Both the position numbers and the translations under genes were made by a program. A stretch of 61,952 bases of DNA, filler included, from Hausera hauseri (taxonomy: Eukaryota), in NCBI GenBank assembly GCA_046269625.1. It is 13 parts of 13 records of this genome, joined end to end, with 100 filler letters (N's around TTAATTAATTAA, not from the genome) between each part and the next. Parts side by side here need not be neighbours in the genome. Positions count along the whole stretch, not along the records: positions 8,540 to 12,482 come from JBJURY010868960.1; 12 more parts are not named here. One strand, written 5' to 3'. The notes beneath the pieces are model-generated. The model made no database searches and was not told where the DNA came from. It saw nothing but the letters and a program-made list of their open reading frames with translations. Of this stretch, positions 4,660-35,141 are shown piece after piece (within the stretch, counting starts at the first letter, position 1; every line of letters begins with the position of its first letter).

Positions 4660-6330
4660 AAGAACTGCAGGCTGACAGATGAAGGCCAGCTGCTGTGAAT
4701 GTGAGTGAAAGATGGAAAATTAAGCTAGCTGTTGAGGATGCAAAGGAGAGTTGGTAGATGAAGGCTAACAACAGGGGGCGTTAGTGTGTGCTTGCAGGTG
4801 TAGGCTAGCTACAAAGGTGCTAGCATGAGCTGCAACACTAAAGTCAGCTATTGAGACCGTGACCATGAGCTGAAAATTTCAAACCAACTGCTAAGGATGA
4901 GCGTGTGCTAGTAGATAAAAGGTCAGCTACTAATAGCAACATGAGTGAACTGGAAAATTGAAGCCCGCTACTTGGTATGTGAGCATTGGCTAATAATGGT
5001 AACTGCTGAGTATGCATGTGAGAGCTGGTAGATGAAAGCCAGCTGCTGCAAACACAAGAGTGAGCTGATAAATTAAGTCAACTGCTGAGGATAAATGTGT
5101 GAGCAGAAATTAAAGCCAACTGGTGAGAATTTATGGATGAGCTGGTAAATTAAAGCCGACTGTTGAGGACGCAAAGCTAAGCTGATAGATGAAGGCCAGC
5201 TGCTGAAGACACAAATGTGAGCTAATATGTTAACACCAAAAGCAGAAAATGCATTGTTTAGTTAGTGAATGAAGCAGACTGCTGAGGATGTCTATGTGTG
5301 CTAAAAGATGAAGGCCAGCTGCTGAGGATGTGTATGTGTGTGCTGTAGAGGAAGGCCAGCTGCTGTGGATGATAATATGTGCTGGTAGTTGAAGGCCATC
5401 TGCTAAGAAGGTGAGTGTAGGCCGGTCGATTAAGGCCAGCTGCTGAGGATGTCTGTGTGTACACTGGTAGATGAAGGTCAGCTGCTGTGGATGATAGTGT
5501 GCACTGGTAGATGAAGACCAGCTGCTAAGGATGTCTGTGTGTGCTGGAAGATGAACCTCAGCTGCTAAGGATGTTGTGTGTGCTGGTAGATGAAGGCCAG
5601 CTGCTGAGGATGTCTGTGTGTGCTGGTACGTGAAGGCCAGCTGCTGATGATGTGAGTGTGAGCTGATAAATAAAAACCACCTACTGAAGAAATTGATGAG
5701 AGCTGATAAATGAAACCAGCTACCGAGGATGCAAATATGAGCTGATGAATTAAAACCATCTACAGAGGACTTGAATAAGAGCTGATAAATGAAACCAGCT
5801 ACCAAGGATGCAAATGTGAGCTGATAAGTGAAAACCAGCTACTTAGGACACAAATGTGAGCTGATATGTTAAAACCAGCTATCGAGGATGGAAATGCAAG
5901 CTGATAAGTTAAAACCAGCTACTGAGGATGCAAATGTGAGCTACTCAATGACACTAGTTACTGAGGATTTAACTGTGAGCTGATGAATAAAAAAATGCCT
6001 ACAGAGGACACGAATGAGAGGTGATAAATTAAACCAGCTATGGAGGATGCAAATGTGAGCTGATAAATTAAATCGAGCTACTGAGGATGCAAATGTGAGC
6101 TGATAAGTTACATCCAGCTACTGAGGATGCAAATGTGAGCTGATAAGTTAAAACCAGCTACCAAGGATGCAAATGTGACTTGATAAATTAAAGGCAAGTG
6201 TTGAATTGAAAGTGTGAGCAGGTATTTAAATGCCTGATACTGAGGGTCCCAACTTGAGCTGGGAAATAAGAGCCGACTGCTCCGAATGTATCTATGTGCT
6301 TGTGGATGAAGGCCAGCTGCTGAGAAAGAT
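4660..6330. repeat. 40-bp tandem minisatellite with two sub-types
   Basis: Units TGCTGGTAGATGAAGGCCAGCTGCTGAGGATGTCTGTGTG (about 5280-5650) and GCTGATAAGTTAAAACCAGCTACTGAGGATGCAAATGTGA (about 5660-6190), degenerate copies on both sides. Confidence 0.9.
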
Positions 6331-8329
6331 AGTTTGTGCTGGTTGATGAGTGTGAGGTGGTAGATAACAGGATAGCTGCTAAAAGGCATGAATAGCATGC
6401 TAGGGTTGGGAGAGGAAATGATAAAAGCTTGCCATGTATAAAGCAAGTGTGTAAGATCAGATTCCCAGTGTGGTAGAGAGCAGAAACAGGGACACTGGAG
6501 ACAATGAGATATTGCGCCTTCGGGAACGGCCCCCTCTGTTGATTTATGTAAGACTCTGCACAGAGAATGGCTTGACCAGCCGGACAAAGTCCGAACGAGC
6601 CAGCAGCCAGCTCGTGTGACAGGAGGCACACTTATACAGAACCAGGGAGAGTCACAGCCAATGAGAAACTGACAAATCTAATAATACGGAAATGAGGACA
6701 GCTGTCAGCGGCGGCTTCATAATCACAGTGTCTTATCATAGAGATACAGTAAAATGTCAAGGCAATGTGAACCCAGTAATTACTATCCATTACACCCAGA
6801 AAAAAAACAGAATTAGAAAATGATGAAACCAACCACCAACAGAGAGTTGCAATATATCCTCACCTAGGAGTTGAAAAACGATTGGCGACTAATATGGAAG
6901 AGAGACCCTGGTGAGTATGAGAAATAACTTAAGGTATAATTAGTTTAGGAGAAGACTGCGACAGTTTTACTGGTGAATTGTCTTGTGACTGAAGAATACG
7001 AGTGTTTTGAGAACGACTGCCTTTTTCATTCAACTGCTACAACCGGACTGAACAAAGCTGTAGACAGTTTATTACTCATGCTTGGTTAAATAAACGAATT
7101 TCAACAAACTATGGAGACATGAGGTAGCCTTATCAGCATCAATGAGTTTTGACGAGCCAGTTAATTAAAAATATGTTCAAATTCAATCATTCAAGTTTTT
7201 TCTAGTGACCCCTTTAAAATGCAAGCTGAGGTAAGATAATTCTAACTTTCTGTTCCAAAGTTTAATTATGATCTGAAAGGATTTTTTTTGCTTGTTAAAT
7301 CTAGTTTGATTACATCAACCTGTTAAAAGACTGTAGGTGGAAATTAGCATTCTTTGCTATAACCTGGCACACTTTGCAAAAAGTAAGCATGATATGAAAG
7401 GAGATCACCATTAGAATTATCAGTCATTTCTTGTGCTGACTGAAAGTTAAACTGGACATGAGGAATTTTTGGTGTGGTTTATATTATTGTTGGTCTTCTT
7501 GTTCTTTATCTTCTTGTTAATGTTGTCGCAGGTAAACAAGGGTTGTTTTTAAATATTCTGCATAAATCAAATTGGCATTTCAAAAATAAATCAAACAGAC
7601 TGGGATGAAAATAATTGTACCTGTCAAGCAAGGCATGAACTAAAGAGAAGCTTCCCTTAATTTCTACAATGTGGGAAAAAATGATATCTGGAATTCAAGT
7701 AGATGCTCCTTGGAAGCTTACCAACTACCTGAAGCCATTTGCAGAACAGTTATTCCCTGCATGTAACAACAAGACCTGTATTCCTCCCCACAGCTAAAAT
7801 ATAACGGTATCTATGACTAGTGTTACATATTGGTCTTGAGCTGTTATTTCTCTGTTCTACTAAAAGTTGTATGTGACACAATAAAAACTTCAAATTAGGG
7901 TTTACCAATTCACAATTTTTATTGTAAAACCCATGGAATTTGTGGACAAGGTGAAAGATGTCATAATGGAAAGCAATGAAACTATGGTTTCTTTTTTCCT
8001 GATGAGTTACAGTAATACAGGTAGAAAAAAAGTTAAATAATTTGGATGATTTTTCTTTGTTGAAATAAAGTTTTGTCTCTCCTCCAAGAATCTTCTTGAG
8101 TCCGAGGAGTTGCAGGTGAACTGAGCCTAACAAGCACTACCTCCACATGGTTGACAAAGAAAAACTGTTTGGTCACAAAAATGGCTTCCTTTACGCCTCT
8201 CTCCAGTAGCTGCAGGACCTGGAGACAGAATGGTCAAAAAATACAATTCTGATCCAAGATTTAACACAGATTAAAAGAAAAGTCTGCCTGGATTAACCTC
8301 TCTATGACAGACATGTCTCCCAATCATTT

Positions 8330-8439: not shown

Positions 8440-8554
8440 NNNNNNNNNNNNNNNNNNNNNNNNNNNNNNNNNNNNNNNNNNNNTTAATTAATTAANNNNN
8501 NNNNNNNNNNNNNNNNNNNNNNNNNNNNNNNNNNNNNNNGTCACACCTCGCCAC

Positions 8555-9011
8555 GGAAGGGGGTGATGTTGTGCCTAGCAAGTGACATGCTACATTAATA
8601 TAGTTTTTATTTTGTTAATTACTGTTTTGCCGAGGAATGATGCACTCTAGTCGTTTTGCCTCGTCGTGCAGTGCTTCTCATCGGGATTACGACCATTCGA
8701 ATTTCTGGATCTCCGTTCGAGATAAAAATCCTGTGACAATACAACGACATGGAATGATCGAAATAAAGTTCAAAGACAGGCTAATCAAGACCTCAACCAA
8801 AGTGTTGCTCAGAGTTTCCTTTGCTGTTCTGCCAAGACAAAGATATTCATCAAATACCCAAAATTCCCTATTACTATATATGTATATACTGTATAATATT
8901 GCATTATTATAATGAACATTGTTAAGATGGATATTGATGACCAGTTTTTAGTTTTGAAATTTGAATAAATCAATTTTTCCTTATCACCAGACTTTTTCTT
9001 ATGAATCTACA
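8555..9011 (+). mobile_element. Polypurine tract plus 3' LTR (8567-9011) of the ordinary Gypsy family, inserted into ORF1 of another element
   Basis: GGAAGGGGGTGA then TGTTGTGCC...TCTACA with AATAAA near 8964. The start resembles the LTR at 27878 (GGGGGGTTGA-TGTTGTGCCC). No primer-binding site after 9011, and the downstream reading frame runs up to the LTR edge. Confidence 0.7.
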
Positions 9012-11237
9012 AAGTTATGTTGTGAAGAGAAACTAAATGAAGCTATAGACTTGGATTAGCCAGAAGAAGTGGCAAAAGAAACACTAATCCAGTGGAAACG
9101 CGAATTAGAACCCTGGACGAAAAATCAGACGAAAACTCCAGAGACGTGGGATAGAACTATCCAAAGCATTGAAACTAGAATCAATCAAGCTCAGTCGTTA
9201 TTAAATACATTAGAAACCAATCTGAAATTAAAAAGGGCAGTACGTAACTTAGAGCGTGTCATGGATGAAATTAGATTTATCGTAGTCAACCGACTGAAAA
9301 AGAAGCCGGTTAAAGAACGGACTTAGGTCGATCTAGGAATAATGGGCATAGATTCATTAGATATTCCGCCACTAATGGAAATGATAAAAATTGCCGCCAC
9401 TGCAACTAGACAGTATACAAGTTTGGACAACCGTCTTAAAATTGAGGCCGACAAGAGATCGCAAATATATGGATTGAGAAAGAGAATTATGCACCCAAAT
9501 AACGACGAAACACAGAAAATAATTTTGGCCTGTATCCTCGAATTCGAAGAGTATAAGGATTAAATCGATTACGTCCGTCGGACAATCGATTTTATTAAGG
9601 GTCCAGACGACGAGCTAGAAGATGCGCAGAGAATGATAGACAGGACAATAATGGCAAAACCCGAAAACGATAATCCATTAAAGGAATGGTCCGAAGTAAT
9701 AACAAGATTGAGTGAATTAGTGGCAAATCGAAAGAAAGAATTTCAGGAGAGCGAACCTTCCGTAAGGAAGCGATTAGAGGAAGACACCCGGAATCTAGAC
9801 ACTATGAAGGAAGAAATTGACATTCGAACTCAATTCGAGGCATTATGTCAATTGAACTTTATGGAAAAAAATCAAGAAATGATGATACTAGATAATATAT
9901 ATAAGGTGATCGAAGAAACAAATTTCATGCGAAAGCGGAATGCGACTTGCGATTTCTATCCGCGATTAAGAGACGTCCGCCTGAAGGGAATACGATGGTT
10001 GACAGCCAAATCTATCAAAGAAATCTCAATCCGAGATCTTAAAACCTTAGACTGTTGTCCCGAATACCGGTTAGTCGTGGAAGAGGCGGTTAAGTTCTTA
10101 CATCGTCCCCAAAAATGGAGAGATGGAACGGATCAGACTTCATACCGAACTAATTAAAATAAAGAACGACCGCCACCTTAATTTCGAAGAGATTAAATTT
10201 GTAAAAAAATATTAGATGCGATCGATTCAGATTCAAACAGTATTAACGAGATGTACGAATTACCGCTATTGATGACGGAAATGGCAGAAATTAGTGATGA
10301 AAAGTTAAGACAATTGTCGCAGCAGATACAGCAAGTCGAAGAAACTTGCATTAAGACGAAACAGAGAACGATGAGATTAGACAAAAAACAAATACGCTCT
10401 TACAGAAGCAGAAAAGGCTGATAAGTCAATTCGTGCAGATATGGCAGAAATGTAACGGCTGAACTAACAAACTATCAAGAAAAAGGGGTAATTTCACCCG
10501 AAGAATTATGTTCGATACTAACACTACTCCACCAAACATCCGCTAATGGGCGCTGTTTCCGAACAACGAAAATGGTCCAAATGCAACAGAAACTACAGGA
10601 ACTCAGAAAAACTATGTGGACCGCAAGTATGGACGGACCAACTAATACACCGTCGAAGGGTTATCAACCACCAGTCGATGAAAATGAACCAGATTGGGAG
10701 GCATATTTAGATGCAATGATCGCCGAGAATCCAAAAACTCCAATACGATTGGTTGAAATGGAGGTCTATTCTCCAGACCAAAGATTCAATATAGGAATGC
10801 TCCTGGATCCGGTATAAACCGAGAAAGATTTAATTCAATTAATTGAAGTGAACCTTACTGAAATTCAATTGAGATATCTAGTTCCTACCTTAACTAAGTT
10901 AGCTAGCGAAGGTACGATTTCTAGTACAGTAACTAAGCTTTTACTTAAGGAATATACTAAATTCTTAAAGGCAAAGGCAGAGGAAATGGTTCCAGTAAAA
11001 ATAGTATCCGACTGGATGAACGAGAAAGTACAAGAGTTCACTACTCGCACCCTTGTTAAGGATGTATTACTGTGGATAAAGGACAATGGATACGCCCATG
11101 AGTTGAGCTATAGACTTTATTTTAGAGGAAAGATACTAGACGAGTCAGAGTTATTGATAGAGGTTGGAATTATTCAAGGCGAAATAAACCGGTTAGTGGT
11201 ACCACCACTATCGATTAAACAAAAGAAGAGTCCATAA
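9012..11237 (+). pseudogene. ORF1 of the glycoprotein-bearing retroelement: helical/coiled-coil protein with C-terminal ubiquitin-like domain
   Basis: ORFs 9069, 9342, 9633, 10572 and 10848 are all in one frame, broken by stops (10160-10570 may also carry frameshifts). The C-terminal 72 aa (10986-11201) align with the ubiquitin pattern. Confidence 0.6.
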
Positions 11238-11239
11238 GG

Positions 11240-12482
11240 ATGGCTAAAGCCGAACAACAGGTAGGACGAATAATAAGAATCCGAGATGAAACAGTATATT
11301 TTGAGTACCTGCAGACAGATGAAGATAACAAACAATACGATAAAAACTTAGTACCCTTCAACGGCAGTGTACCTGCTGTAATAAAACAGAAGCGTCCAAT
11401 CGGTAGACCTCGGAGAATACGAGAGAAAATCGATTATAATGGAAATTTGATCACAGAGTTAAGGCAAATGTCCATACCGACCTTCAGTACGGACAATGAG
11501 GAACTGAACGAACTGATGAAAGATTTGATACAGATCGTAAACCACTCCGGCTTCGGTGGCGATATAACAGATGAGAAAGAGAAGACCATAGCGAACGCCG
11601 CAAAGGCTATGAAGGGCCTTCGGTGTAAATTATCCAGAAGTACCTTAAGCGATGAAATAATAATCGAGAAAATTATGGTAGAAAATACCATAGAAGAATT
11701 GAGAAAAGTGTTGCTATACCTGGCCGTTAAAACTAACCCAAATCGAGAAAATAAACTCAACAAGACCACTAGCTTAGCAAGAAGGGCCGCCAGGAAACTA
11801 CCTCAACAAGTGAACTGGTCTAAGTTATTCAAAAAAGAGGAAGAACATCAGAATAGATTCTTCTTCAATAACAATAAATTCGGAGATCTACATCAGAATG
11901 TAACCGGAAATCGCAGAGGAAATGAATCGAACTGGCTAATAAACTTTCTGACCATGATGATGTTTATAAGACAAATGGGCGCAGTTACATTATACGACTG
12001 TGACAAATTTAGATTGGGCCAAAAGTATTCGTTAATGGACTTGGATGTGTGAGAAAATGCGAGGCCCCACAGATTAGAAACAAAATAGAAAGGTTATGTA
12101 TTATATCAACAACGCGAATTACTTACCTTGTACAGAGTAGAATGTATGTTGCGGCGATCTTGCAGCATTTTCCATTGTGGACAGGTACATGGGCACTCGT
12201 CAATAATTAAGCCAACAACCCCACTAATTTCGATGAATTTGGAGAGACAACATTGTAAGCAAGATAGAAAAACGGGAAAAATAAAATTGGACGGTATGTA
12301 AATGGAAATGCAGCAATGAAAAATAATCAGAGTGTATAAAGTGGCAGCAGAAAGACTAGATATGCACACTGGACATTGTGGAATACGACACCAGAAAGGG
12401 ATTAAAATCAAACATCGTAGTAGTGGATTTTTACGAAACCGAAATGCGTATACAGAAAGCGATGTTTCATAGCGTTACTAAA
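11240..12482 (+). pseudogene. ORF2 N-terminus: basic AT-hook domain, internal signal peptide and start of a chuvirus-like glycoprotein
   Basis: KRPIGRPRR at 11390-11416; hydrophobic WLINFLTMMMFIRQMGA at 11933-11983; then VTLYDC..YSLMDLDV*EN..VLYQQ..VECMLRRSCSIFHCGQVHGHSSII..RQHCKQDRKTGKI..GHCG in the same frame past point stops. Confidence 0.75.
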
Positions 12483-12583
12483 NNNNNNNNNNNNNNNNNN
12501 NNNNNNNNNNNNNNNNNNNNNNNNNNTTAATTAATTAANNNNNNNNNNNNNNNNNNNNNNNNNNNNNNNNNNNNNNNNNNNNA

Positions 12584-12706
12584 TCAGTTGAGCACCAGCA
12601 ATATACTATGATCAGTACGAGAGTCGCTTTATCATGTAATAATGAAAAGCGTAATTTGGTGCGGCGAAATGCAAATTGAGCGTACGAACATTCGAGTTTG
12701 GAATAA
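12584..12706 (+). pseudogene. Polinton-type pPolB extreme C-terminus
   Basis: HQQYTMISTRVALSCNNEKR...AYEH resembles the H.IYT....KIALS..DDKR...AYGH tail. Confidence 0.6.
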
Positions 12707-13646
12707 AACACATAAATTCTGTGCTGACGATGCAGACAGATCAAAGTGACCCATTTACTCTGAAAATTTATTGTTATCTGTGTTTTGTAAATAATGTATA
12801 TTGTTTGTTATTTTTGCCTTTTGTTTTATTATCATTTAATTTATATATGTATATATTTAACTTAATGTGAAACAATATGAAAAACAAACTAAATATTTAT
12901 TAATCATTAGCTACAATCAAAAATAAAGTAAGTCGAATCAGCGTAAACTTTCCCAGCTTCCATATTGGTGATTTAACTCAGTGAAGTTTCTTGTATCAAT
13001 TCAACTTTAATGTTAGATAGTTTTTAGCTCCTTACGGTGTAAAAACTGCTGCTGTTGTTTCTCCACCATATGAATTAACAATTTTCGTCATATTCCTTTT
13101 AGAAAAATGGACGGTGTCTCGGATATCGTCAGTCAATACCAAACCATTGCCAACTTTTTTAATTGTGTCTTCCATTATATCTAAAAAACCGTCGCTGAAC
13201 TTCGTCACCAATAGATCATATTTCGACGGTATGATTTTGATCATTTGCGTCAATGGCAATTGAATTGTGTTGCGCAGATAATGTAAGTTATATCCATTAT
13301 ACAACCTGAAATTTCTGAGCTAATATGGGGAGTTCCTTGACTTACTCACAAAACTGCCACCTGAATTGTTTTCAGAATACATTTTTGTAGACAGAGACGG
13401 AATGAAATTAAAATTTACCTCTATATACATATATTTAACAAATTGTTTTGTTTATAATGTAAACATCAGAGAATTAAGTTCGAAACTGTCTTCATACTGG
13501 TTGCTGTTAGANNNNNNNNNNTGTCCGGAAATATAACTGTGTTAAATAAACAGTAATGTCAAGGAGTATTGCCGTTTGGTCGATTAAATGATCATTTAGT
13601 AATGTCATATACCTTTTTTAAACGAAAGAGAAAAAAACACAAATAT

Positions 13647-14121
13647 TTATTTCCATGAAACATAGCCTACACACAGCAGTAAACATTTTCTGTACGCACA
13701 ATGTGGTCCATATTCACCATACGGGCATAGAATATTGTCAGGTACCATCACCAATGTTGTTGAGTTGTTCGATGTTGAATATGTCGTCATTCACAAGTCG
13801 GGAAATTGTGAGTGCAGTTGCGTAAACTTGTGACCGTTGATTTGATTTTTAAAGTAAAACATTATACTTTGGATGCCTCGCATGATACGTGATACGCAAA
13901 AGTTTCAGTTGCTTTCATGCCAATTAAGTCTATGACTATATCCTATGAGAAATCCAGTGATCATTTACGCCTTTTCTGTTAAGTGTTTCCACATAACGTT
14001 TGGCTTACATACGTATACAAGTTGTTTAAAAATGTTACAAACGTCGAAAATACAATTCCTTTATCAGGTAACGAGCATTGTTGTTTTGGAAAGCTTCAAC
14101 AGATATAAAACCGGACGCCAT
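13647..14121 (-). pseudogene. Polinton-associated accessory gene remnant (possibly exonuclease-like)
   Basis: MASGFISVEAFQNNNARYLIKELYF...HRLNWHE...CPYGEYGPHCAYRKC; pattern recalled from small Maverick accessory ORFs; frameshifted. Confidence 0.4.
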
Positions 14122-15090
14122 TATTCATTTATTTACAAATTCATCTTTTGTTTATAACATAAAAACAACTAATTATTATTATCATAAAAATCATTAAACG
14201 TAAATGGTTTTATCCACATCACAAAAACAGTCTCTTCGCGTTCAATTCGTGTGTAATTGACATAAAAAAATCCTCACCTTTCCGATAACATTATACTGAA
14301 TTTCGCCTCTTTATATCGAAGAAATACTATTTGTGCGGTTCAGTAGCACTTTCATCCGTCAAAATAATATTTACATCGTCCATTATCATTATTCCTAAAC
14401 CAGTATTAAAATTACACGTATATTTTTACTCGTTAATTGGGTTTATGAAAGAGGAACAGTAAAACAACATTTAAAAAGTACTTTAGTTATACGCAAAATC
14501 GGGCTTCTCACACCGTCTTTTTTTCTGTATCCTTGCAATTCAATGTTCAGTCGACACTTTAAATCATCCTCAGGCATATTAAACATTTCTGGACCGATAA
14601 AATCAAACATATTAATTTTTACGGCTTGTAAAACGACAGATTGTTATTGTTGGGCCGTTTCCTTCAACTTTAAATCGACGCTTAATTGACTTAAAGCATA
14701 AGTGATTTTATCCTAATTTTGATGCGAAAGCTTTTTTACATGACATTTATACGTGGTTGCCTTCAACAACACGGGATCATTCAATGAAACCTGTACGGGC
14801 GTTTTCAAAAAATGCATTTCATACTGTAAAAAAAAGTCATTTAGGTAAAAATGTAGGTGTTTGACGAGCCACCGGCATTAATTTTCGTTTCCGTCTTCCA
14901 CTATTAAACTTTTTCACTTGCCGTTTTAATAACGGTTTTGCTGATTGCCGGACAGGTTCTGTTTTGGGTTCCAGAAGTACGACATTGTCTTTCTCGTCAC
15001 CAAACAACCACGAACAATTAGAACTTTCATAATTGTCATCACTAAAAAGTGTTGTTTCATCATCGTCTTCCATAGTAGAAATGTCTAAAC

Positions 15091-17130
15091 CAGTGGTTCC
15101 CAAACTTTTTAAAGTCACGACCCACTATTGATGACTCCAGCTTATGGCGACCCACATAACTTTACTGTGTAAAAATATTAATGAAGGAAATAAATTTATT
15201 TTAAGTTACATTTTTATTGGGGCCCATGATAAAGATGAGCCTGTTTCTTGCATTGTTTCATAATGGACTTGACATCAACTTCAATGTGCCATAATTTCAG
15301 ACGTAAAGAGTTTGAGAGTTGCAGTTTATTCCAAAATTTGCTTTTAATCGAAACCATTGATGAAAGTCGAACCTCACAGTTATAAGATGACGCGAAACGG
15401 ATAAGTACTTTTAATGCTTCGGTAGAAATGATTGGGTATTGGGTATTGTACCAATTATCTGGTGTTGAAATTCATTTCGAAGGATGAATTTTTTTATAAA
15501 TCAATAAGTTATTCGTCAGATATTGATATCCCAGTCATCGTAGCAGACTGGAAGGGGCTCACTATCCATCTTTTCTGCTACATAGTATTCATCTCTTCAT
15601 GAAAATATAATTTAAAACTTTCTTTTAGCTTATACAAGTGTTCAGATACCTCGATGATTATACCATCATCTACTTTTGCTTCAGTCTCTATTACAAACGT
15701 TTGTAATGTTTCAAAACAATGATAATTTCGGTTTTCAATACAATTTTTCCACAGAACAATTTTTTTCACAAAAGTTCGAATTTTTCCATGAACTGCGAAT
15801 ATGGTACCTTCTGTTCCTTGTAAGTACAAATTCAGATCGTTTAATCTTGAAAAATGTCTGCCAAATACGCGAGCCTCAGAGAAAATTCGTCGTCCCACAA
15901 GTATTTCTCAAAATTGTATTTACTTTTAGAAATATAGCAACTTCTTCGCGAAGTTCTGCCAGTCTCGTTAGCACTTTGCCTCTAGAGAACCATTGTATTT
16001 CAGTGTGCAGAAGAAGAGATTTATGATTGCTTCCCATCTCTTCGCACAAGTTCTGAAATAAGGGTGATTGCAAAGGCATTGACTTGATGAAGTTCACTAT
16101 TTTGACGGCAATCTTTAAAACATTTTTAAAATCATCAGATGTGTATTTTGATACTAAAGCTGCCTGAGAAGGTTGCAATGAATCCATGATGCGTTGAGAT
16201 TAAGTTCAAGTATTCTGGTCACCACACCACTGTTTCTACCACACACAGCCCGTGCGCCGTCCGTACATATTCCTATACATTTATGCCAATCAAGGCCTTT
16301 TTTTTCTGATGTAAGTATCAACAATATTAAAATTTTCATCGCTGGTGCTTTGACTGATTGGTTCACATAAGAACATATCTTCATGAGGTTCGGAGTTCCA
16401 TACATAACGTACAAAACAAGTAATTGGCACAGACCCTGTACGTCAGTAGATTTATCGAGTTGTAAAGAAAAAAAAAGGACTTTCAAAAACTCATTCAATA
16501 AGTCGACTTTCTACCCATTGAGACATTTCATCGATCCTACGCGTGTCTGTGTTATTAGATATAGAAATTGATTCAATTTATTGTCCACTCTTATTACCAA
16601 AGGAGACTTTAACGGCATTTTTTATAGCTGGAAGAATTAAAGTTTCACCTATTGTGTGTTTGGACGCATAATTTGCTTTTCAAGTTGTTCGTAAGAAATA
16701 ACGCATCGTGGTCTTGGATTTTCGTCATCTCCATTCCATGTAAACCCCATTTTAAGTACTGGTAATCATACCTTCTCAGTACTTTTCTTCGCTTTGTCTG
16801 ACTTCGTATTGATTCACTTGACTTCCTTTTGTTTCGATTCACTGGAGACTCATCTTCATCAATTTCAACTGACCTTTTAAACCATTTATCTATTATATGG
16901 AGTGAGTAAATACGAAAATAATCAGATTCAGAATTATAGACAATTTGTACTCACTGATCGATTTTATTGAATTAATTAAGATACAACGCTTCAGCTCACG
17001 AAAAGAAACGTCGATTCTATACAATCAAAGTGCTGCTGTTCAAACCGCTTATCGGTTCCAATCATTTCCAATCATGACATAGGACTTCCTCTTTTTACGA
17101 TTACGAATGAATAACCTGAGTGAATGATCA
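15091..17130 (-). mobile_element. hAT (Buster/Charlie, ZBED5-like) transposon with pseudogenised transposase (about 15225-16890)
   Basis: TIR CAGTGGTTCCCAAACT at 15091 preceded by 8-mer GTCTAAAC (nnnTAnnn target). Motifs RRYDYQYLKWG (BED start), FSLQLDKSTDV, ICTDGARA, WIHC, LLHTEIQWFSRGKVL, LNDLNLYLQG. Other end lost at spacer. Confidence 0.9.
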
Positions 17131-18118: not shown

Positions 18119-19066
18119 TACCTTTGCCAGTTGAACACCTAACAAATATTAAAAATTTAATATTGCTAATAGGAAGCTGTATAAATGAATTTGCAGCAAC
18201 ATTCATATGAAATATAATAAAATAAATATTTGTTTACCTAAATTACAAAATTTTTAAAATGAGCGCGTGATTTTAATTCATTAATTTCAAAATATAATTT
18301 GTTTTCACATAAATTGCTACCAAAATGCCGAAAAATACTGTTTGATATACGAATGAGGGAACTAATAATGGGCAAAGTCAACCAAGGGAGAAGTTATCGT
18401 GATATTCTTAGTCAGCTTGATGTTTCTATCGCCTGTATATCAAAAATTGTGAAGCAGTTCAAGAATAACGGGGATTTGAAGAATAAATTTGGAAAGTGTG
18501 GGAGGAAGACAATTCTTTCCAAAAGGGCAGAACGAGCTTTGGTGGTGGAAGTAGGGAGAAATCCAACAGTAACAAGTGAATATTTAAAGATAATGTTACG
18601 CGATGAGCTTGGCATTCATATTACTAGTCAAAGTGCGCAATAATCTAATAAAATTAGGTTTTTGTAATTCACCCGTGGTTGAAAAGCCGCTTCTGACAGC
18701 ACGGCACAGAAAGCTGTGTCTAGCCTTTGATAAACGTTATGTTAATCACCCGCTAGAGTTCTGGAAACCGCAATATTTCGGATCGTTAGCTTTGTCCATG
18801 ACCTCCAGACTGAAAGAGTGTATTAAGGAACGTGGAAGCCAAACATTGTATTGACTAAGTACCTAAATTTATTGTGTATTTTAATGTCTTCAACTCGTTT
18901 TATATGGTTCGTGTGTTCTATGAAAATATACGTCATTTTTGTAATTTAGATAAACAAATATTTATTATATTTCATGAATGTTGCAGCAAATTTATAAAGC
19001 TTTCTATTTACAATTATATTAAATTTGTTTGAAATTTGTTAAGTGTTAACTACTTTTTGGGGTATA
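18119..19066 (+). mobile_element. Tc1-like transposon, internally deleted (DNA-binding domain kept, DDE domain missing)
   Basis: About 130-bp imperfect TIRs (18119-18250 vs 18935-19066); GRSYRDI..SIACISKIVKQFK..GRKTILS HTH; jumps from LEFWK straight to the C-terminal SMTSRLKECIKERGSQTLY. Confidence 0.85.
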
Positions 19067-21653: not shown

Positions 21654-21854
21654 CAAACCGACTTACAGTTTGACAGTTACCTGCAGGCGTATGAAACTGG
21701 TTGCGGCACTATGGTGGATCAGGAACGAATTGGTAGTAAAAACCACCAATTGATGACAATTCAGACAACAAAGAAAGCACTAGACCCGTTTGATGACAAA
21801 CGCTGCTGGATTGATAAAAATCACAGTGTTGCTTACGGGCATTATTGTATATAA
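21654..21854 (+). CDS. Polinton pPolB C-terminus (intact tail, cut by spacer)
   Basis: QFDSYLQAY...RIGSKNHQLMTIQTTKKALDPFDDKRCWIDKNHSVAYGHYCI* followed by AATAAA. Confidence 0.85.
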   Translation, partial: QTDLQFDSYLQAYETGCGTMVDQERIGSKNHQLMTIQTTKKALDPFDDKRCWIDKNHSVAYGHYCI

Positions 21855-22320
21855 TAAATATTTTCAGTCTTACTACTTGTTTTTTAAATAGGTTTCATTT
21901 ACACCGTTTTCATAACATAAAAAGGTTAAAAACATTTATTTACGAACAAAACGTGATAAAAATATTACAACTGCACCAGTAAGTATACTACATACAAGTA
22001 AAACATTTCTCTGTCTTCTTCTAAATTCCTCTTTAATCTCTGTCATCAGTATCGAACGAACAACAAGTTCGACATAATCTTTCTTTGATAAATAGTATTC
22101 ATTCTCCAGTTCATTAAGAAATTGAACACCATCTATTTTCCCACTGCATATTTCATCTGTCAATCGCTTAATTTCACTTTGTAAATCTATTTTCTAAACA
22201 TATAGATAATTTAGAACAGATTTAAAAACATATAGATAATTTAGAACAGATTTAAAAACATACCATTTGTCGTTTTATTTTAAAATGTTTTTTACACACC
22301 TTTATTTATACCCACTAGCC

Positions 22321-22547
22321 AAAAGGAGGTGGGAATAGTGAAACCCCGACTGAACCAAAATTAAAACAAAAATGACATGGCACCAATTGGTCAGTTTTCC
22401 TGCTCTCTGATTGGTCAATACGAAATTTTTTCCTCCTCTCTGATTGGTAAATCTCATTTATTCTTCCCCTTCCTGCTCTCTGATTGGTCAATCAGAGAAT
22501 TTTTCCTTCCGGGGGGGGTTGGTTCCATGCGCTCACTTCCATCTACT
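22321..22547. repeat. Polinton-like right terminal repeat ending ...CTACT
   Basis: GTGGGAATAGTGAAACC motif shared with 46928-46940, repeated CTCTCTGATTGGT (CCAAT) boxes, G-run, terminal CTACT (AGTAG on the minus strand), 700 bp after pPolB. Confidence 0.7.
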
Positions 22548-25500
22548 GATTGAATGTAAAAGGGTAGAGGTGTCAATTAGAGAAACGGAAGATTGTACCT
22601 CGGAATTGCCGGTGCTCTATAATATGGAACACCAATATGTCATGCCAGTTACCAGAATATTGTTAGAAGCCAAGACAAAACTTACTCAGTTAGATAATTG
22701 TACATTTAACATGTCGCCAATGTTCGAGTTAAATGATAAGTGGTTTAGAATGCCCAAAAGAGAAAAAGTATCAAAGCCGGAAACTTTAAGTTTGATCAGT
22801 CTACAAAGAAACCAAAAATTTGAACCACTCACTGGTATTTCACAAGGAGGAATTTACATTCAACAAAATCTGATGGATTATAGACGTATGTTGTTATTTT
22901 CTCAACAAAGGCAAAGGATAATAATGGAATTAACCAGAGGGGTGATGTGGGATGAAGAAGGTTCATCACATTGGGAAAATCTAATGGGAAAACATTACTT
23001 AAAAAAAGTTACCAGAAATGTGATGGAAAAGATGTAGGAAAATTTTTTGTATTTCGGTCAGGCAGCATCCGGATTTTTAGCAATATATTTTATTATTAGC
23101 GCTTTAAGAACAATATTTACTGCACTAGGAAGGGCCTGTGGTATTCATGCCGCAGGTGGTTGTTCCTGGAAAATACTTATAGCAGTAGTACCAAGAGTGG
23201 CCAGCTGTTTTTTAGCTAATCAGGATGCAAAATGGAAAAGAAGAATAACCAAGGAAAAGATTCAAGACGTCGAGAAGAACTCACCTTATAGCACCTTAAA
23301 TGGAAGAAACGACGATAATAATGATAATTTGGATACCAAGCCAACAAGTAATAGGTATATTACTAAGTTAAAGAGACTCTCACTAAAACCACCGAAACCG
23401 AAATATCAAAGGAAATTGATGACAAATCTACCATAATTAGATCCGACTAATGAATACCATAGAAAAAACTATCAGGAACCATCGGTGAGAAACCCATCAG
23501 CTCCACAATACGTGAAACATGGAGGAATGTACCCTACATACCAAGTCTTAAAAATAAAACAAAATTATGCTGAAGAACTTATATCATACAACCACGAACC
23601 CACGTGTAAAACTACTAATACGGAAAGCGAAGCTTGGTCTTATGTGAGACCAGAGATAGAGATAGAAGTAAATGAATGTCCATTAATTGCCTTAATGGAT
23701 ACCCGGTCTACAACCACAATTATGGGGAAGAATCAGTTACCCAAGGATTTAAGAAGTAAATTACGAAAACCCGGGGAAACATTAATTAATGCGGGAGCAT
23801 TTGGAATGGAGGAGGAAATAAAGATGGTCCTAGATGCGAAGATTAAAATTTGCGGTCAGATTATAAATCACACCATAAGAGTAGCTGAGAATCTAACCAA
23901 CGAAATACTAGTGGGATGCGATGTACTACATCAACTAGACGACGTATATATTGATGTTAAAACCGGTCAACTTAGAAGTTTTAATGAAAAACAATACCAG
24001 AAAGTAGTGTCATTAATCAAAGATATCACAATACTACCACGTTCGGAAGTAATAGTACCCGGTAAAATAGAAAGGAGACTACCAACAAGATCGGTTTATT
24101 TTGAACCATCTCCACATCTAATGGAGAAATATGATGTTTTAGTAGCACCACATGTAGATAAAATAAGAAACGGAAAAATCCACTTGAGAATCTGCAACAC
24201 GGGAACAAGGGAGAAACGGTTAAGAAAAAAAACCAGACTCGGATCGGTAACACCAATTGAAGAAATATCTAAGGAAGAGATTAAGTCGATTATCTCAGAT
24301 GTAGATAAGATCAAAAAGATAATGTCGAGGAAACTAAAGTTGGATACCAACGGAAATAAAGAAACAAAAACAAACACGATTAAATGGTAGGAGAAATTAC
24401 AAGATTCCACGGCACTGACAGAAGAGAAAAAAGAAATGTTGCTCCAACTATTACAAAATAACAGTGGTCGATTCGCCCAAAATAATTATGATCTAAGAAC
24501 GATGAACATTATTCAACACGTTATTAAACTAAAAGAGGGACAAGATAAGTGCATAAAAAACGGCCTTACAATCTGACATACGACAAAAAGGAAGATGCTC
24601 GGAAAATTATAAGGGAAATGAGAGAGAATAAGGTAATACGACCAAGTTGCTCGCCGTGGACTGCACCAGTAATAATGGTTAAGAAGAAAGACGGGGCCAT
24701 GAGATTCTGCATAGACTACCGAGCTCTAAATGAAATAACAGAGACAGACACGTATCCACTACCGAGAATTGATGAAATATTAGACAAATTGCACGGATCG
24801 ACAATATTCACGACTATCGACTTACAAAAGGGATATTGGCAGGTGGAGGTGAAGGAAGAAGATAAGCCCAAGACAGCTTTTTCGATAGGCGAAGGATTAT
24901 GGGAATTTAATAGAATGCCGTTCGGATTAAAAAATGGACCACCAACGTTTCAAAGAGGGACTGAATTACTACTGCTGGACGCACCACATGCCATGGTCTA
25001 TATAGATGACGTAATAATAGCCTCATCGGACTTTCAACAGCATTTGAAAGACCTACAAGACCTTTTTGATAGATGTGAAATAATGGGTCTAAAGATAAAC
25101 CCAAAGAAATGCTCATTCGCTCGAGCGGAAGTTGATTTCCTTGGACATCGAGTAGATAGACACGGCGTAAAACCACAAGATAAACTTTTAGGAAAGATAA
25201 AAGATTTTCCAAAACCAACTACAGTCAATGAATTACGCCGATTCTTAGGTCTGGCAAACTATTATCGAAGATTTATAAAAGATTTCAGTAAAATAGCGAA
25301 GCCACTATATGAGTTGTTACGTGAAGATTTAGAAAAAGTAGTATGGACAGGTGACTGCCAAAAAGCTTTTGAGGAACTAAAGGAAAGATTACTCAACGCT
25401 CCGATTTTGATTTATCCAGATATGACAAAACCATTCATACTTGCCACTGACGCAAGTGACTACGGAGTAGGAGCGGTCCTTTCACAAAAAGGTGAAGACG

Positions 25501-25921
25501 GGAAGGAACACCCGGTAGCCTACGCTTCCAGGAAGTTAAATAAACACCAAAAGAATTACGCAGTTATTGAGAAAGAATTACTGGCCGTCATATTCGCACT
25601 AGAAGTATTCTCACCATATATCAGTGAGAATAAACCTCTATTAGTATACACAGATCATCGACCTTTACAGTGGCTAAAGCAACATGAAAACCCAAATAGC
25701 CGATTATTACGATGGGCTCTCAAATTACAGCCCTATACGCTAAATTTCCAATACAAACCAGGAACGCGGAATGCAAATGCGGATTATTTATCAAGAATGT
25801 CAGAAGTACCAAAAACAAGAAGAGAAGTAATCGCCGCGGTATGGAGCATGGACGGATCCATAGAAAAGATAAAGCAAAATCAACAAGAAGATAATGAGAT
25901 AAGGGCTATTAGAAATTATAT
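22548..25921 (+). mobile_element. Ty3/Gypsy-type element with glycoprotein C-half fused in frame to protease, then RT and RNase H
   Basis: ORFs 22444, 23047 and 23485 share one frame, split only by point stops. Motifs: ECKRVEVSIRETEDCTSELPV..PVTRIL, GGIY, TM FGQAASGFLAIYFII; protease ALMDTRS..ILVGCD; one frameshift near 24545; RT SPWTAPV, FCIDYRALN, RMPFGLKNGP, YIDD; RNase H TDASDYGVGAVL, EKELLAV, TDHRPL, NADYLSR. Confidence 0.9.
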
Positions 25922-26573
25922 NNNNNNNNNNNNNNNNNNNNNNNNNNNNNNNNNNNNNNNNNNNNTTAATTAATTAANNNNNNNNNNNNNNNNNNNNNNN
26001 NNNNNNNNNNNNNNNNNNNNNTCTGTCTGAATGCATAAGCATACTGAGTTGTGCTCTCATCGTACTGTTGGTGCCTAATCTGCAGCTTGATTAATTGCTG
26101 ATGTGGAGACAATGAGGGTAAAATCGATCAATATCTGGTATATTCTTTTATTTTTAAAATTTCCAATGGATTGCGTAATTCGTGATAAATTTTCTATAAT
26201 TGGGGTAATTTGTACTATTTTCATTTTTGAAATAATTCCTTTCTCTTAAATTTAATTTTTAATATAATTTAACGATATTTACTCGATACATTACTTATAA
26301 TTCAGTACATATTCTTCAAAATTAAAATTTCATTAACAATTCTTTCAAATCTCTACACATACATTTTTCAAATTTCTTTGAACATAACATGACTTTCTTG
26401 TAATTTTATGCACATTTCTTTAGATTATGAATTAATTTTAAATTTCTGAATATTTATTATTCACGGAAAAATCCAATTTCGTGTACCTTTCAGTTTGTAA
26501 CGGGATTTAATTTTTAAATTACTAAATTCGTTAATTATTATTTAGCCGATAACAAAATTTTGTACTTGATACA

Positions 26574-26835
26574 TGCTGCTCCTTATTAACAGCATTTTGA
26601 GCACATCTCTTCACATTATTAATCAGCGTTAATATTACCAATCTAAGCAGGAAGTTACGCTTATGTAACTTTTCTTACGGTGAGTTCGTGTGGTGGTTCA
26701 GCTACCACAAGGGCTAGCTATACTCTAGCTACCTATACTCTATTTACACCATGTTAGTTCCGAATAAATCCATATTCATATATTGATATAAATATACACT
26801 TCAACAAAATCAAGTACATCTACATCTCAGCGGCA
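26574..26835 (+). mobile_element. Possible solo LTR
   Basis: TGCTGCT...AGCGGCA inverted ends, internal AATAAA near 26763, higher GC than flanks; no clean TSD. Confidence 0.3.
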
Positions 26836-27599
26836 CATTTAATTAATTATTATCACTAATTCGTCCTAACTAATTACCTTCACTATGATTTCAATGACAG
26901 AAAAGATAAATGTAGTTTTAGTGTTGTATTGAAGATATTGCATAATTCCATCACGATGAGATAATGACAATAATTACGATATATTCTAAAATAAAAACCA
27001 GTATCTTATTGTCAACTTTATTAATTCTTTTTTAAAAAAACTCTTAACATCAATACTTAATTAATTTATTTCATTATTTTCTTTACAGAGTAATAAAAGA
27101 AAAAAACTGCCAATATCGTATTTAAAATCATACACTTTCTCTTCATAAAACTAGTTATCTAAGAGGTTTTGCAAGTTGCAAATTCAAGCAGTATATTACC
27201 AACTGTCCATGATAGAGATGAGCAATATCAAATGTTTTATTCGGATGCGCAACGGTAGAGTATATCGTATACATTCTTGAAAGTCCTTTAACTGTACATT
27301 CTTGTTTAGTATTTCATCGTAAACAATTTTATTTCAATTTAATTGTTCTCGTCGCTAGGTTTGTTGTCATACATCAACGAAATGATAGGGCTTGTCGCTA
27401 TTGCTAATATCCATTACATTATTAAATGCGTGTCAGTTTGCATATTTTTCTGGTTCGAGAGTTTGTGCCAAATGATTCATTTCTTCAACGAATTTATCAT
27501 AAGCTGCATTCATGTGACAATTTAATGAAGCATTTTTTAAAGCCGTAGGTTTGATTTTATCGTTTAATGAGGGATCTGTGACGCTCGAAGACATTCAGT

Positions 27600-30456
27600 A
27601 TAGCTGATTTTTGTGGTGTTTTTAACAAGAAGTCCGAATTTGGCGAATGAAATCATTTGTCTCTGAAATCCATCAAATTTGAGTATTTTAATTCCGCTGA
27701 TGGTGCTTTCATCCAAAATGAAGTAGCATCGTAGAGACTGTTTCCAGGTACGCATAGCTATATTCCGGCATGACGGGATAAAACGACAAAGTATATCAAC
27801 TCGTCGGCAATTACAAAAACATAACAACAGATGAAAAAACGATAACAGTGTATTTACAGGTCCTTGTTGGGCACAACATCAACCCCCCCCCCGGGGCAAA
27901 GAAGAGACCAGAGGGAAAGAAAATAGGAAATGTGTTGAAACAGTGCAGGCTGTCTAGGAGGTTTTTGTGTGAATAAGACCCCTGCAGTGTTAATCTCCTT
28001 ACTGTAGGTACTACATGTGACGATTTGCGAATATTCAATGTCTTTGAATCTGGTTGCAGAGGAGATTTGAGCAAAACACTGTCAGATTTCGTCCTTGAAG
28101 GTGATGTATCGTTCAGAGACAAGAAAGGGGCTGGAGGAAAAAATGTAGGAGAAAAGGAAAGTGTGAAGGTTTCTAGAAGGGGAGTTTGGAGTAGGTTCTG
28201 GTAAAGGAGTAGTTGTAGAGGCCGGAATGCAAAGGGGTGAAGCAGGTGTAGGAACTGGAATGGGAAAAGCGGAGGAGTCAGAAAGGGAGTAGAAGATTCA
28301 ATTTGAGGGGTATCGTCTACGAAAAAAGCGGGCTTGACGTTGTTGATATGTACCGCTAGTCCTTTACCATCTTTAGAAATAATTGCATTGTGAGAGTGTA
28401 ATTGGACGAGTTTGTAAGGCCCCAAATACCGCACGGCGTTTGATTTTTTAACCAGACGAATTTTACCGCATACAAGTCTTCAGGTAAATATGTTTTGTCT
28501 TTGTAAAGTAACCTGCAGAACGAATCCTTACTGATTGCAACGAAGTGATTTTGCGCTGCCCGTATTGTTTCATCTGTAGGAGTGTCATCTAGGGCAGTAA
28601 GGTCGAATAATGACCGTACAGGAGCTCTGAATAAGGCTTCATAGGGTGACCATTTTGTAGATGTAGGCAAAGTGTTCCGCCAGCCAAACAGAACAAACGG
28701 AAAGTGATTCGTCGAACCAGTGTTGGTCTCTGCAAGGATTCTTAGTGACGTTTTCAATGTTCGGTGGAAACGTTCGAAAAGGTCATTCGATTGGAGGTGA
28801 TAAGGCCTAGTATGTATGTGCTGAATCCTCAATCGGTTAACAAGGAATTTCAGCGGGTTGGATTCAAACTGTGGACCCTGATCTGTGATGATGAAGCTAG
28901 GTGATCCAAACCTGCTAATCAATGTACGAATGAAAACGTTAGGTACGGTATCGGGATGATTTCTGGCCATCGCGAAGAACGGTCCATCATGGTGAAAATG
29001 AATTTATGACCGTTGTCCGGAGGAAGAGGGCCAACGATGTCAATATGCACGGATTCGAAACGCGATGTGCATGGAAAGTGGAATAGTGGTGGCTTTAAAT
29101 GATAGTTGTTTTGTATTTTTGGCAAGCTACACACTCCTTAACCCAGGTTTGCACATCGGAACGCATTGACGGCCAAACTACTTGTCGGTGGAGTAAACAA
29201 AAAGTAGCTTTAGCGCCAAGGAGGTGTAGCGAATGTATACTGTTAAACGCTTGCAGTTGTAAAGTTGGTGCGAGAATTATTACGGAATGACTTAGTTTGG
29301 AAGTGTCTAAAGCCAGACCGTCAACAATTGTACAAGACTTAAAAAATTAAGCATGTTCTGAGGTGGCTGGTTCTGTTGAAGTTGTACTTGAGTGAAGATT
29401 GGTGAAAAATTAATCGAACCAACCGTCCTAGATAAGAAATCGGCAATCAAATTATTAACCCCGTTAATATGTTTTATGTCAAAGGTAAATGTCGACAAAT
29501 ATGATATCTGTCGTTCTTGAGGTGAGTTTCATAGCCATGATGTTTAGCAAGGTCTTGTGATCGGTCTGTAAGTTAAAATGGCGAGCGACAATTATGTTGG
29601 AGAAATGCTTTAAAACGAGAACGATGGCCAATAATTCTCGATTGAACGTTGAGTACCTCGATTCAGGAGGTGTTAACTTGCGTGAAAAAAACTCCAAAGG
29701 CTGGTTCTTTCCCTTACAGATTTGATGAAGTACGGCGCCCATAGCGGTGGTGGAGGCGTCTGTAGTGAGGATGAGCTGTGCATCATGCTTGGAAAAAGTC
29801 ACTATCTCAACACTTTTTAAACCTTCCCTTACCTTTTCTAATTTGTTTACTAGTTCACGGGTCCATTGTATTGGGTGGTGTTTTTTCCACCACTGAGGTG
29901 AGCAAATGGTGCGGTAAGTTCACAGCAGTACGGCACATACTTGTGAACGAATGCAAAGTACCCAAAAAGCTCCTCATTTCTGTTGTTGTTCGAGGTAGTT
30001 GCACGTTTTTTAGCGCTTCAACTTGATTGGGCTGAAGCGAGTAGCCTTTGGAAGAAATAATGTGATCAAGGAAGTTTATACGCTTCTGGAAAAAGTGACA
30101 CTTGGCGAAATTAATCTGCGGGTTATGCTGGTGTAAATGTTGAAAGATTGATCTGAGGTGTTCTTCGTGTTGTTGGGTTGAAGAAGAAACGATTAATATG
30201 TCATCGATATAGGGAAAGGATAGCATCGATGTGGCGTTGAAAAGTCTGCGCAGCATTCCGTAGGCCAAAAGGCATGTACAGATATTCGTAAAGGCCAAAA
30301 GGAGTAGTGACGTTTGTTTTTTCGATATCCTCAGGTGACACAGGTATTTAGTGGTAGGCTTTGGATAAATCAATGGTAGAATAAATTGTAGTTGAATAGA
30401 GACGGTGTAAGATATCCTTAATGAGTGGCAGTAGGTATGCATCCATTATGGTCAAA
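27600..30456 (-). mobile_element. Decayed Ty3/Gypsy pol (RT-RNase H-integrase), PPT and 3' LTR start at 27878
   Basis: PYIDDILI, TTDASTTAMGAVL, RELLAI, VHIDIVGPLPP, ITDQGPQFES, ERFHRTLK; PPT G-run then TGTTGTGCCC; same family as 58150-61952. Left boundary approximate. Confidence 0.92.
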
Positions 30457-31396
30457 NNNNNNNNNNNNNNNNNNNNNNNNNNNNNNNNNNNNNNNNNNNN
30501 TTAATTAATTAANNNNNNNNNNNNNNNNNNNNNNNNNNNNNNNNNNNNNNNNNNNNGCAGCATCAACAACAACACTAACAGTTCAATTGTACCAGGTTGC
30601 AGTAAGTTGATTTCATTTTTACTTTTTGTCATTAATATATATTTAGAATGCAACAAGTGAGTCCACGTAAGACCCGTATTCCATCAGGCGGTCCAGACTG
30701 TACAACGGGTACAATATACACTTCCTGCGAACCCCCATTCTGGTGCAATTATCAACACCGATCAAAATGAAGCAGGTTAAATATGGCCTGTTGGCAAACA
30801 AAATCGGTTAAAGTGACTTGGATGCATTGGAGGAAACGATGAAGGAAGTCTACAATTATTTTATGTTGTCCAATGATATTCGGGACACATCCTCGCTTTT
30901 CCTTAAAGGCAACATGGCGAAATTGCGAGTGCAAGTGGAAAAACAGCAGTTCTGCCAACGAAAGGGATAAAAGGATACGTAACAATGAAGCTGAAAGGAT
31001 ATAAGAAACTGCGCGGTATTAAATCGCCAATGTGGAAGTTGGGGAAGTTTACACTAATGAATTGACTTGACATACTCTTTTTTAGTTTTTAGTGTTGTTA
31101 GTTTATGATTTATAATAAATTTATGAGTTTTTGGTGTTGTGTTTTAGATTAATAATGAAAAGTATTTGCGGTTTTGAGTAATATGAGATTTTTAATTTAT
31201 TTTCGATAAGCCAACTTAAGCTCCATTTCCTTGATATAAAGCAGAAGACAAAAACTAGTGTCCAAATACGTTATTGATCACATATACCAAAACATGTACA
31301 GCAGATGAATGTAAAATAAAGATCATAAATGTCAATCATCTAGCTGGACTGAATTGCACGTTTCCACTGAACTGTTTATGAACACTATACGTGTGT

Positions 31397-34300: not shown

Positions 34301-35141
34301 AAATTGCAATTCGGAATAATACTGCCGATACTGATTTGTACGATTTGCTTGATATCTGTTCACATCGCTGTACTTCAATACAGCCAGAATTCTGTACAGA
34401 AAACTGTATTCGTCGTCATTATTTTGTACATTCACTACCGCCAAAGACTGCTTTAGAGATGCAGGTGTCGGTATGAATGATCGACCAGACAACGACACCA
34501 CGTCACTCGACTTTGTTATAATAAAGCCGAGTGTGACAATTCGTATAACTCCCCATCCACTACCTTTTCGGTATAGTTGGCGATTTTCTCATCCACCTTT
34601 TCGCCTACATCGGCAATAAAATCTTTGGAATACGGTCCGGCTCGATGTGACCGATACCGTTGTTTCCAATCACCGTCAAAGTTTTCAAATTCTGCAAATG
34701 CATAATATTACACTTTGTAGTTGATGAGTTTGAATTTCTCCACCTCTAATTCCAACCGGCTGCGCACACTAGACGGAACATGCTTCAGCTATAGTGTTGT
34801 TGTCCCCGCATGTTTACTTTCACGTCGTACTTGTTTACATCGTACTTGAGAGTAATGGAAGGTTTCTGCTCTTGCATCTGCTCCTCCTGCTGCTGCGGCT
34901 CGGTACCGTTTCAGATTATGTCGTGAAGACTTGTTGAGGCCTGACGTTTCCTACTTGTTGAGGGGATACTGATTTTTCCTGTCGTCATCACTATTTCTTT
35001 TTTAGACCCCTGAAACTTGTTCAAGTGGTCCTTGTGCTAGTTATAAAATTGTTTCTAGTTGATTTCGTCAACTATAGAACAACTGGGACAAACGTAGGCC
35101 CGTTTACCGTGCACCGTTATTGCGCCATAGTACTGCTCTAT
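31397..35141 (-). pseudogene. Polinton protein-primed DNA polymerase B with endonuclease VII-like insert, multiply frameshifted
   Basis: SFIPTP..VVNVQNNDD, DHFTGQYLEAACNSCN, PVIFHNFRCYDCH, FLDSLQFL..SLAKLV, YLKLDVYLLADVF, DINYLYGWALS..PYG, NNSLYGKTVEN, GDTGSFF, IGRFKDE, LRPKCYS, AYGH tail. Confidence 0.92.

Follow-up and report, generated by a model that had tools for sequence, protein, structure and literature searches.

A decayed class III fusion-glycoprotein reading frame in Hausera hauseri, probably from the middle of a Burro-like Ty3/gypsy retrotransposon

Burro and GYPSM1 are giant Ty3/gypsy elements of 25-30 kb, whose planarian chain is given, in the section of a review that deals with them, as Gag, AIR1, Smc, MATH, BIR, ankyrin, Ubi/SUMO-like, BCL2, Env, protease (PR), dUTPase-like and reverse transcriptase (RT) domains (Arkhipova and Yushenova 2019, PMC6431247). 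The same section relates the Burro Env to the fusion proteins of mononegaviruses and reports decayed copies in a planarian. Errantiviruses of GAG-ENV-POL order with an HSV/gB-type ENV have been described from Platyhelminthes, Bryozoa and Nematoda (Chary and Hayashi, eLife 2026, PMC13524379), and nine rows of supplement 1 of that paper are flatworm elements; its main text has no mention of ubiquitin, Bcl, dUTPase or Burro. A chuvirus glycoprotein is also carried by Anakin, a group of BEL/Pao elements (Dezordi et al. 2020, PMC7642597). Troyka (PMC12440569), which according to the accessible part of its description is without an Env, was dropped as a comparison.

The locus reported here, from Hausera hauseri, is a decayed, multi-copy fragment that very probably comes from the central part of an LTR retrotransposon, a Ty3/gypsy element of the Burro-like GAG-ENV-POL type, the intact form of which would encode one long polyprotein. 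It lies in a window of 61,952 nucleotides (the whole stretch of DNA that was analysed), in which 13 contigs are joined by N spacers; all positions count along this window, and the features of the two Env-bearing contigs are on the plus strand. The Env reading frame takes up the final 1.2 kb of a contig of 3.9 kb (8540-12482). An earlier note on this DNA had taken that part for the opening of a polyprotein laid out like the structural region of flaviviruses; the fragment is likely to come from the middle of an already described flatworm-type element rather than to begin a new virus-like polyprotein.

Reading through the stops of 11240-12481, with X for each, recovers in one frame, at the positions reported, all of the motifs that the earlier note had listed: KRPIGRPRR (11390-11416), the signal-peptide-like segment WLINFLTMMMFIRQMGA (11933-11983), VTLYDC at the start of the ectodomain (11984-12001) and YSLMDLDV (12026-12049), followed by LYQQ, ECMLRR..FHCG..GHSS and HCKQDRKTG. 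The part from 11984 to 12482 corresponds to the first quarter, counted from the N terminus, of a class III fusion ectodomain of the chuvirus/gB type, interrupted by four stops and one frame change. Residues 234-359 match Pfam family PF24664 (Monjiviricetes fusion) with E 4.3e-5, a score under Pfam's 27-bit cut-off because the Env piece is short and covers profile positions 6-132 of 653. A phmmer search against 1.84 billion representatives returned 21 homologues (best E 6.5e-14), every one of which matches the signal and the Env start only (query 214-382). With a profile made from 16 relatives the Env frame scores 110 bits. A word-index protein search with the Env frame among longer proteins gave no match, related loci were not found in metagenome and viral contigs, and no RNA data set is among the listed carriers of the sequence. 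In an Env tree of 21 rows, from which one short row was excluded, the window copy is unplaced and sits on a long branch.

The fold was modelled on the top relative, P0003 (15-row alignment), and not on the broken window copy. The Env part of this model has a pLDDT of 85-95 across most of residues 840-1020, and Foldseek matched it to HSV gB (E 5e-7), baculovirus GP64 (2e-6) and Thogoto GP in the PDB and, in a set of viral models, to the glycoproteins of chu-like viruses (E 3e-23); VIA-align superposed it on gB with Z 8.8 and an rmsd of 5.1 over 214 aligned residues. Judged by the predicted fold of P0003 rather than of the window copy, the Env family is a chuvirus/gB-type class III fusion protein. 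The chuvirus-type (herpes gB-like, class III) glycoprotein proposed in the earlier note is thus borne out by PF24664, by the 21 homologues, by the 110-bit profile and by the modelled relative, and for that relative similarity to viral fusion proteins was found in both HSV gB and the chu-like glycoproteins.

The Env copy itself is dead and truncated, because four stops (12050, 12086, 12299 and 12317) interrupt its frame, because the homology shifts to another frame near 12380 and stays there to position 12482, and because the contig ends inside Env. The stop at 12050 sits in a conserved column of the alignment. The present copy makes no such polyprotein.

Hydropathy and alignment with relatives support an internal signal-like segment before the ectodomain, as the earlier note had supposed. 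Within the first 252 aa, WLINFLTMMMFI is the most hydrophobic 12-mer (1.9), and all 20 relatives with sequence at this place have a hydrophobic segment there (1.8-3.6). The predicted cut falls after ...MGA, and in a count by eye, 20 of 21 rows carry a small residue (A, G, S or T) at the fourth position ahead of YDC, which fits a signal-peptidase site.

The approximately 230 aa before the signal had been called basic and helical. Helices are indeed predicted, in a poor model, and the basic character is only moderate, with 41 K+R against 32 D+E, a pI of 9.6 and patches at residues 46-66 and 126-215. A single-sequence AlphaFold model of 11240-11986 (mean pLDDT 39) has three beta-strands at 11267-11356, predicted with low confidence (pLDDT about 46-51), and then eight helices, which form an all-helical domain of approximately 160 aa at 11420-11902, again with low confidence. 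Foldseek gave no match at E 0.001 to this model, which is too poor for the result to be informative. No homologue of residues 1-230 was detectable in sequence searches: a word-index search with the first 249 aa of the Env frame gave no match. PDB sequence searches at this locus gave chance-level or repeat-driven matches only. ESM Atlas assignments to unnamed or EcoEI_R_C clusters (0.86-0.91, with low recognition) were set aside, and a chromodomain-like reading of residues 6-40, made by eye, was dropped as Pfam gave no such match.

The slot of the all-helical domain is Bcl-2-like in relatives, where P0003, P0007 and P0022 have a W-x4-GGW motif and P0005 matches Pfam Bcl-2 with E 0.00096. Against the window copy, a four-sequence Bcl-2 profile scored at the level of shuffled sequences (357 of 1000), and the hhalign score for Bcl-2 was beaten by 11 of 100 shuffles. 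Global alignment of the C-terminal half reached z 2.1 (67 of 2000 shuffles), which is suggestive in pairwise terms only, and in a sliding alignment the best of 416 windows falls at the expected place. That the helical domain of the window copy is a diverged occupant of the Bcl-2-like slot has roughly even odds.

KRPIGRPRR was correctly recognized as AT-hook-like, and the pattern recurs in four relatives. It is present in five of 13 pre-Env regions (window copy, P0003, P0004, P0006 and P0012) with a shuffle rate of <=0.02 for each, and we therefore take it for a family trait. From these patterns, the recurrence of an AT-hook-like motif before Env in relatives appears to be a small addition to a known group of elements. 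The motif, a difference between the window copy and Burro as described, has no mention in the accessible text of the Burro review (PMC6431247), and a literature search found no mention of an AT-hook in such an Env context; Grohme et al. 2018 or its supplements may list the motif.

Directly upstream of the Env frame, in another phase, a coding frame of approximately 750 codons with nine stops was found. Its first part (8958-10817, approximately 620 codons) is decayed, helical and charged; Pfam gave no match to it better than E 0.008 and it has no CCHC knuckle. A word-index search among longer proteins with the upstream frame gave no match, and no homologue of its first 600 codons was detectable. 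By its position, 8958-10817 would correspond to the Smc-like region of Burro. The last part (10818-11198) is homologous to a module, a helical bundle with a ubiquitin-like domain, that precedes Env in relatives. A profile of this module, built without the window from segments of P0003, P0006, P0011 and P0022 picked by eye, was run against the whole 744 residues of the frame and matched the last 130 codons with 23.4 bits (E 2.3e-9; reached in none of 1000 shuffles, the best of which scored 8.0). When the upstream frame was aligned pairwise, without bias, with single relatives, no alignment was significant. In those four relatives, and also in P0017, the module and Env share one chain. The spacing from module to Env, approximately 265 codons here, is 94-343 in five relatives.

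The label 'ubiquitin-like' rests on inspection by eye, a UBX match with E 0.1 and the annotation of Burro; a beta-grasp or ubiquitin fold is absent from the corresponding part of the P0003 model, a part of low confidence. The conserved bundle and ubiquitin-like module spans residues 378-535 of P0003, 396-560 of P0006, 152-305 of P0011 and 955-1115 of P0022, besides 10818-11198 of the window. In P0003 the bundle looks like widespread five-helix bundles such as those of the IBD type, with a Z of 7.3-7.7 that is not distinctive. A wide structural search with the 1130-aa P0003 model returned gB and common helical bundles and no Bcl-2, ubiquitin or capsid chain, the parts concerned being of low confidence and hardly put to the test.

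The two frames meet at a break (11199-11242) that contains the ATG at 11240. The upstream frame ends in a stop at 11235-11237, two bases before this ATG, and the Env frame is open from 11219. In run X1 the ATG differs in 28 sister contigs, which make up 1187 of 1226 depth units. Length differences near 11199-11242 occur in seven contigs of X1 and one of X2, those at the frame junction in only about one fifth of the X1 depth, and no listed sister piece has an open frame across the interval. Sister contigs also differ in length near 10130-10210, where the window copy changes frame, and 11151-11260 contains no slippery heptamer. As the ATG is not common to most sisters and the module belongs to the Env chain of relatives, the polyprotein is unlikely to open at 11240, and the earlier note's opening there gives way to a chain that would continue upstream.

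A natural division of the chain in this family would offer another account of the junction, one ORF holding the helical region and the ubiquitin-like module and a second starting just before the AT-hook and running through Env-Pol. The database entries of P0004, P0005, P0007, P0012 and P0013 begin 145-165 residues before YDC, two of these five with an AT-hook-like motif near the start, and domains are said in the review section on Burro to shift between polyprotein and accessory ORFs (PMC6431247); the closeness of stop and ATG in the window points the same way. However, such database starts are the output of gene callers and may follow breaks, the ATG is missing from most of the sister depth, the sister contigs vary in length near the junction, and module and Env form a single chain in P0003, P0006, P0011, P0017 and P0022. 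We consider a natural division unlikely and a single chain, broken here by decay, the better reading.

In flavivirus and alphavirus structural polyproteins a cytosolic part is followed by an internal signal and a lumenal glycoprotein, the fusogen being of class II. On this pattern, the earlier note let a basic, nucleic-acid-binding protein, here read as a capsid or nucleoprotein, open the chain, a model to which the AT-hook-like motif, the pI of 9.6, the helical N-terminal part, the internal signal and the absence of a Gag capsid elsewhere in the contig all lend something. The inferred topology is what survives of the likeness. The fusogen is of class III, retroelement enzymes come after Env, the start is not conserved, and the pre-signal part is matched in relatives by a Bcl-2-like domain, their capsid being that of an ordinary Gag far upstream. 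The model is highly improbable, and its capsid or nucleoprotein is unsupported; the layout is likely that of a Ty3/gypsy Gag-accessory-Env-Pol middle, which has already been published. It is harder still to credit an endogenised glycoprotein gene of a chuvirus or other negative-strand virus, or a BEL/Pao capture of the Anakin type, unrelated to a gypsy Pol. The best structural matches of a relative's Env are chu-like virus glycoproteins, and the contig 8540-12482 is without Pol. Against this, the long matches that pass Env all enter retropepsin or a gypsy-type RT, with Peptidase_A17 in none, and the upstream module is common to those retroelements. Anakin has the same type of glycoprotein inside an LTR retrotransposon (PMC7642597, as far as its accessible text describes it); the difference from it in the Pol behind Env is judged from relatives and not from a Pol of this contig. 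The Pol of the relatives and the common module largely refute an endogenised viral gene or a BEL/Pao capture, which we hold to be exceedingly improbable.

The relatives argue for the Ty3/gypsy reading through their domain order. Twelve of the 21, the longest ones or those with long N-terminal parts, were scanned with Pfam: seven run from Env into retropepsin, and three of these (P0004, P0011 and P0015) include RT, RNase H and integrase as well; the other five stop within Env or shortly after it. RT stands before Env in none of the 12. A CCHC knuckle lies far upstream of Env in P0003 and P0006 (Pfam), and P0003 and P0009 have capsid-like starts by eye. By predicted domain content, these relatives are Gag...Env-PR-RT-RH-IN Ty3/gypsy polyproteins. 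In several relatives (P0004, P0006, P0007 and P0012) more than one retropepsin-like domain follows Env, and an extra hydrophobic, membrane-protein-like extension comes after the integrase of P0004, P0011 and P0015.

A separate contig of the window (21654-25921) contains at 22550-25921 the C-terminal half of an Env of the same type with its membrane segment, continuous in frame with a retropepsin and followed by RT and RNase H. The Pfam matches are to PF24664 (profile positions 380-629, E 1.2e-45), RVP (E 1e-4), RVT_1 and RT_RNaseH; approximately 130 aa between PR and RT have no Pfam match at E 0.01, and the RT-RNase H part is 47-55% identical to those of P0004, P0011 and P0015. Going by these domains, the contig represents the same kind of element, an assignment of kind and not of copy or family: each of the two contigs covers a different part of Env, and a search for direct sequence similarity between them found none. 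Its Env is cut at about 22550; the sequence upstream of this point resembles the terminal repeats found at 46922-47003 and at 51057-51150 and includes the apparent end of a DNA-polymerase gene; another element has probably been joined there.

Sister copies are abundant. Aligned to the contig 8540-12482, 4584 contigs of run X1 and 324 of run X2 cover 30 of 30 and 29 of 30 bins, respectively; they are mostly less than 95% alike, and in X1 the differences are dominated by transitions. The run with most sister contigs may be the window's own sample. The element is a multi-copy dispersed repeat. Membership of the GAG-ENV-POL group is supported by Env, signal, module and copy number.

At the 5' end of the contig, a purine-rich run followed by TGT (8553-8575) resembles, by eye, a polypurine tract and the start of an LTR; a non-coding stretch of approximately 400 bases follows, with AATAAA at positions 8762 and 8964. 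No capsid or CCHC motif was found in the six frames of the contig by a two-sequence profile (control 15 bits) and a motif scan, and no Gag, Pol, paired LTR or recognised primer-binding site was found in it. Because no Gag appears in 750 codons that begin about 400 bases after the LTR-like start, one could suppose that this start, at 8568, is the element's own and that the locus belongs to an abundant, enveloped Ty3/gypsy lineage lacking a Gag capsid, in which the chain starts with the helical protein and the AT-hook-bearing, Bcl-2-derived domain, once signal peptidase has separated it from Env, serves as a nucleic-acid-binding matrix or capsid. We think this very unlikely: the missing Gag is explained more simply by a 5'-truncated copy. 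The LTR-like start may belong to an LTR that is shared, or that is foreign and happens to lie just ahead of the coding region.

Set beside Burro, by published description and not by Burro sequence, the locus would have the same order, in one frame, of helical region, putative ubiquitin-like domain, Bcl-2-like slot and Env, and its stops and frame changes are those of decayed copies; the contig 21654-25921 likewise follows Burro in the order Env, PR, putative extra domain and RT. Unlike Burro, the 744 upstream codons of this incomplete element have no Pfam match to MATH, BIR, ankyrin or AIR1, the contig 8540-12482 has no Gag, and the Bcl-2 signature of the window copy is degraded or absent. With the gB-type errantiviruses, in the accessible part of their description, the locus has in common a gB-type Env that would stand ahead of Pol, between a signal segment and a membrane segment, and the pattern Y..YQ...EC...CG..HS of the Smed elements matches the window copy by eye; that list is one of intact elements, whereas the window copy is dead and partial (PMC13524379).

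For an intact copy we infer, from sequence at every step, the following course. Gag and an accessory block, made up of the helical region, the bundle and ubiquitin-like domain, the AT-hook-like motif and the helical Bcl-2-like domain, would be translated in the cytosol. Next, the signal inside the chain would thread the ectodomain into the ER, with signal peptidase cutting after it, and the membrane anchor of Env would stop the transfer, leaving protease, RT and integrase back in the cytosol, where they would be released by the element's own protease. The part before the signal would be a host-modulating accessory protein and not a capsid, its AT-hook-like motif possibly serving nucleic-acid binding or nuclear targeting and its Bcl-2-like domain the control of cell death.

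An Env inside a Gag-Pol chain would need both ER threading and cleavage by the host, and the group that has this arrangement carries cell-death and ubiquitin cargo. No experimental test of such threading or cleavage was found in the accessible literature on these elements, for which intact relatives are better suited than the window copy. The latter adds one decayed, divergent family to the published group, together with two small annotations, namely an AT-hook-like motif that recurs ahead of the signal, and the conserved bundle and ubiquitin-like module common to distant members.

The rest of the window holds further genes and relics. On the minus strand, 40684-45999 is an uninterrupted ORF of 1771 codons with two helicase and Sec63 cassettes, intronless over 5.3 kb, which we take to be ASCC3-like, and an armadillo-repeat ORF (weak Pfam match; catenin-like by eye) lies at 325-1218. 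Decayed DNA polymerase B sequences of the protein-primed type (PF03175) at 30557-35141 and 12583-17130 are mutually similar and presumably Polinton-like. A low-complexity basic ORF of 1530 codons with 105-nt repeats and no Pfam match occupies 51654-56246. A BEL/Pao relic with Peptidase_A17 and RT lies between inverted repeats of 42-47-nt units (46706-51183), and two related, decayed gypsy relics (26022-30456 and 56778-61952) are 69% alike over 1.7 kb. A 40-nt tandem array runs from 4670 to 6350, and a Tc1-like helix-turn-helix fragment is present at 18263-18643.
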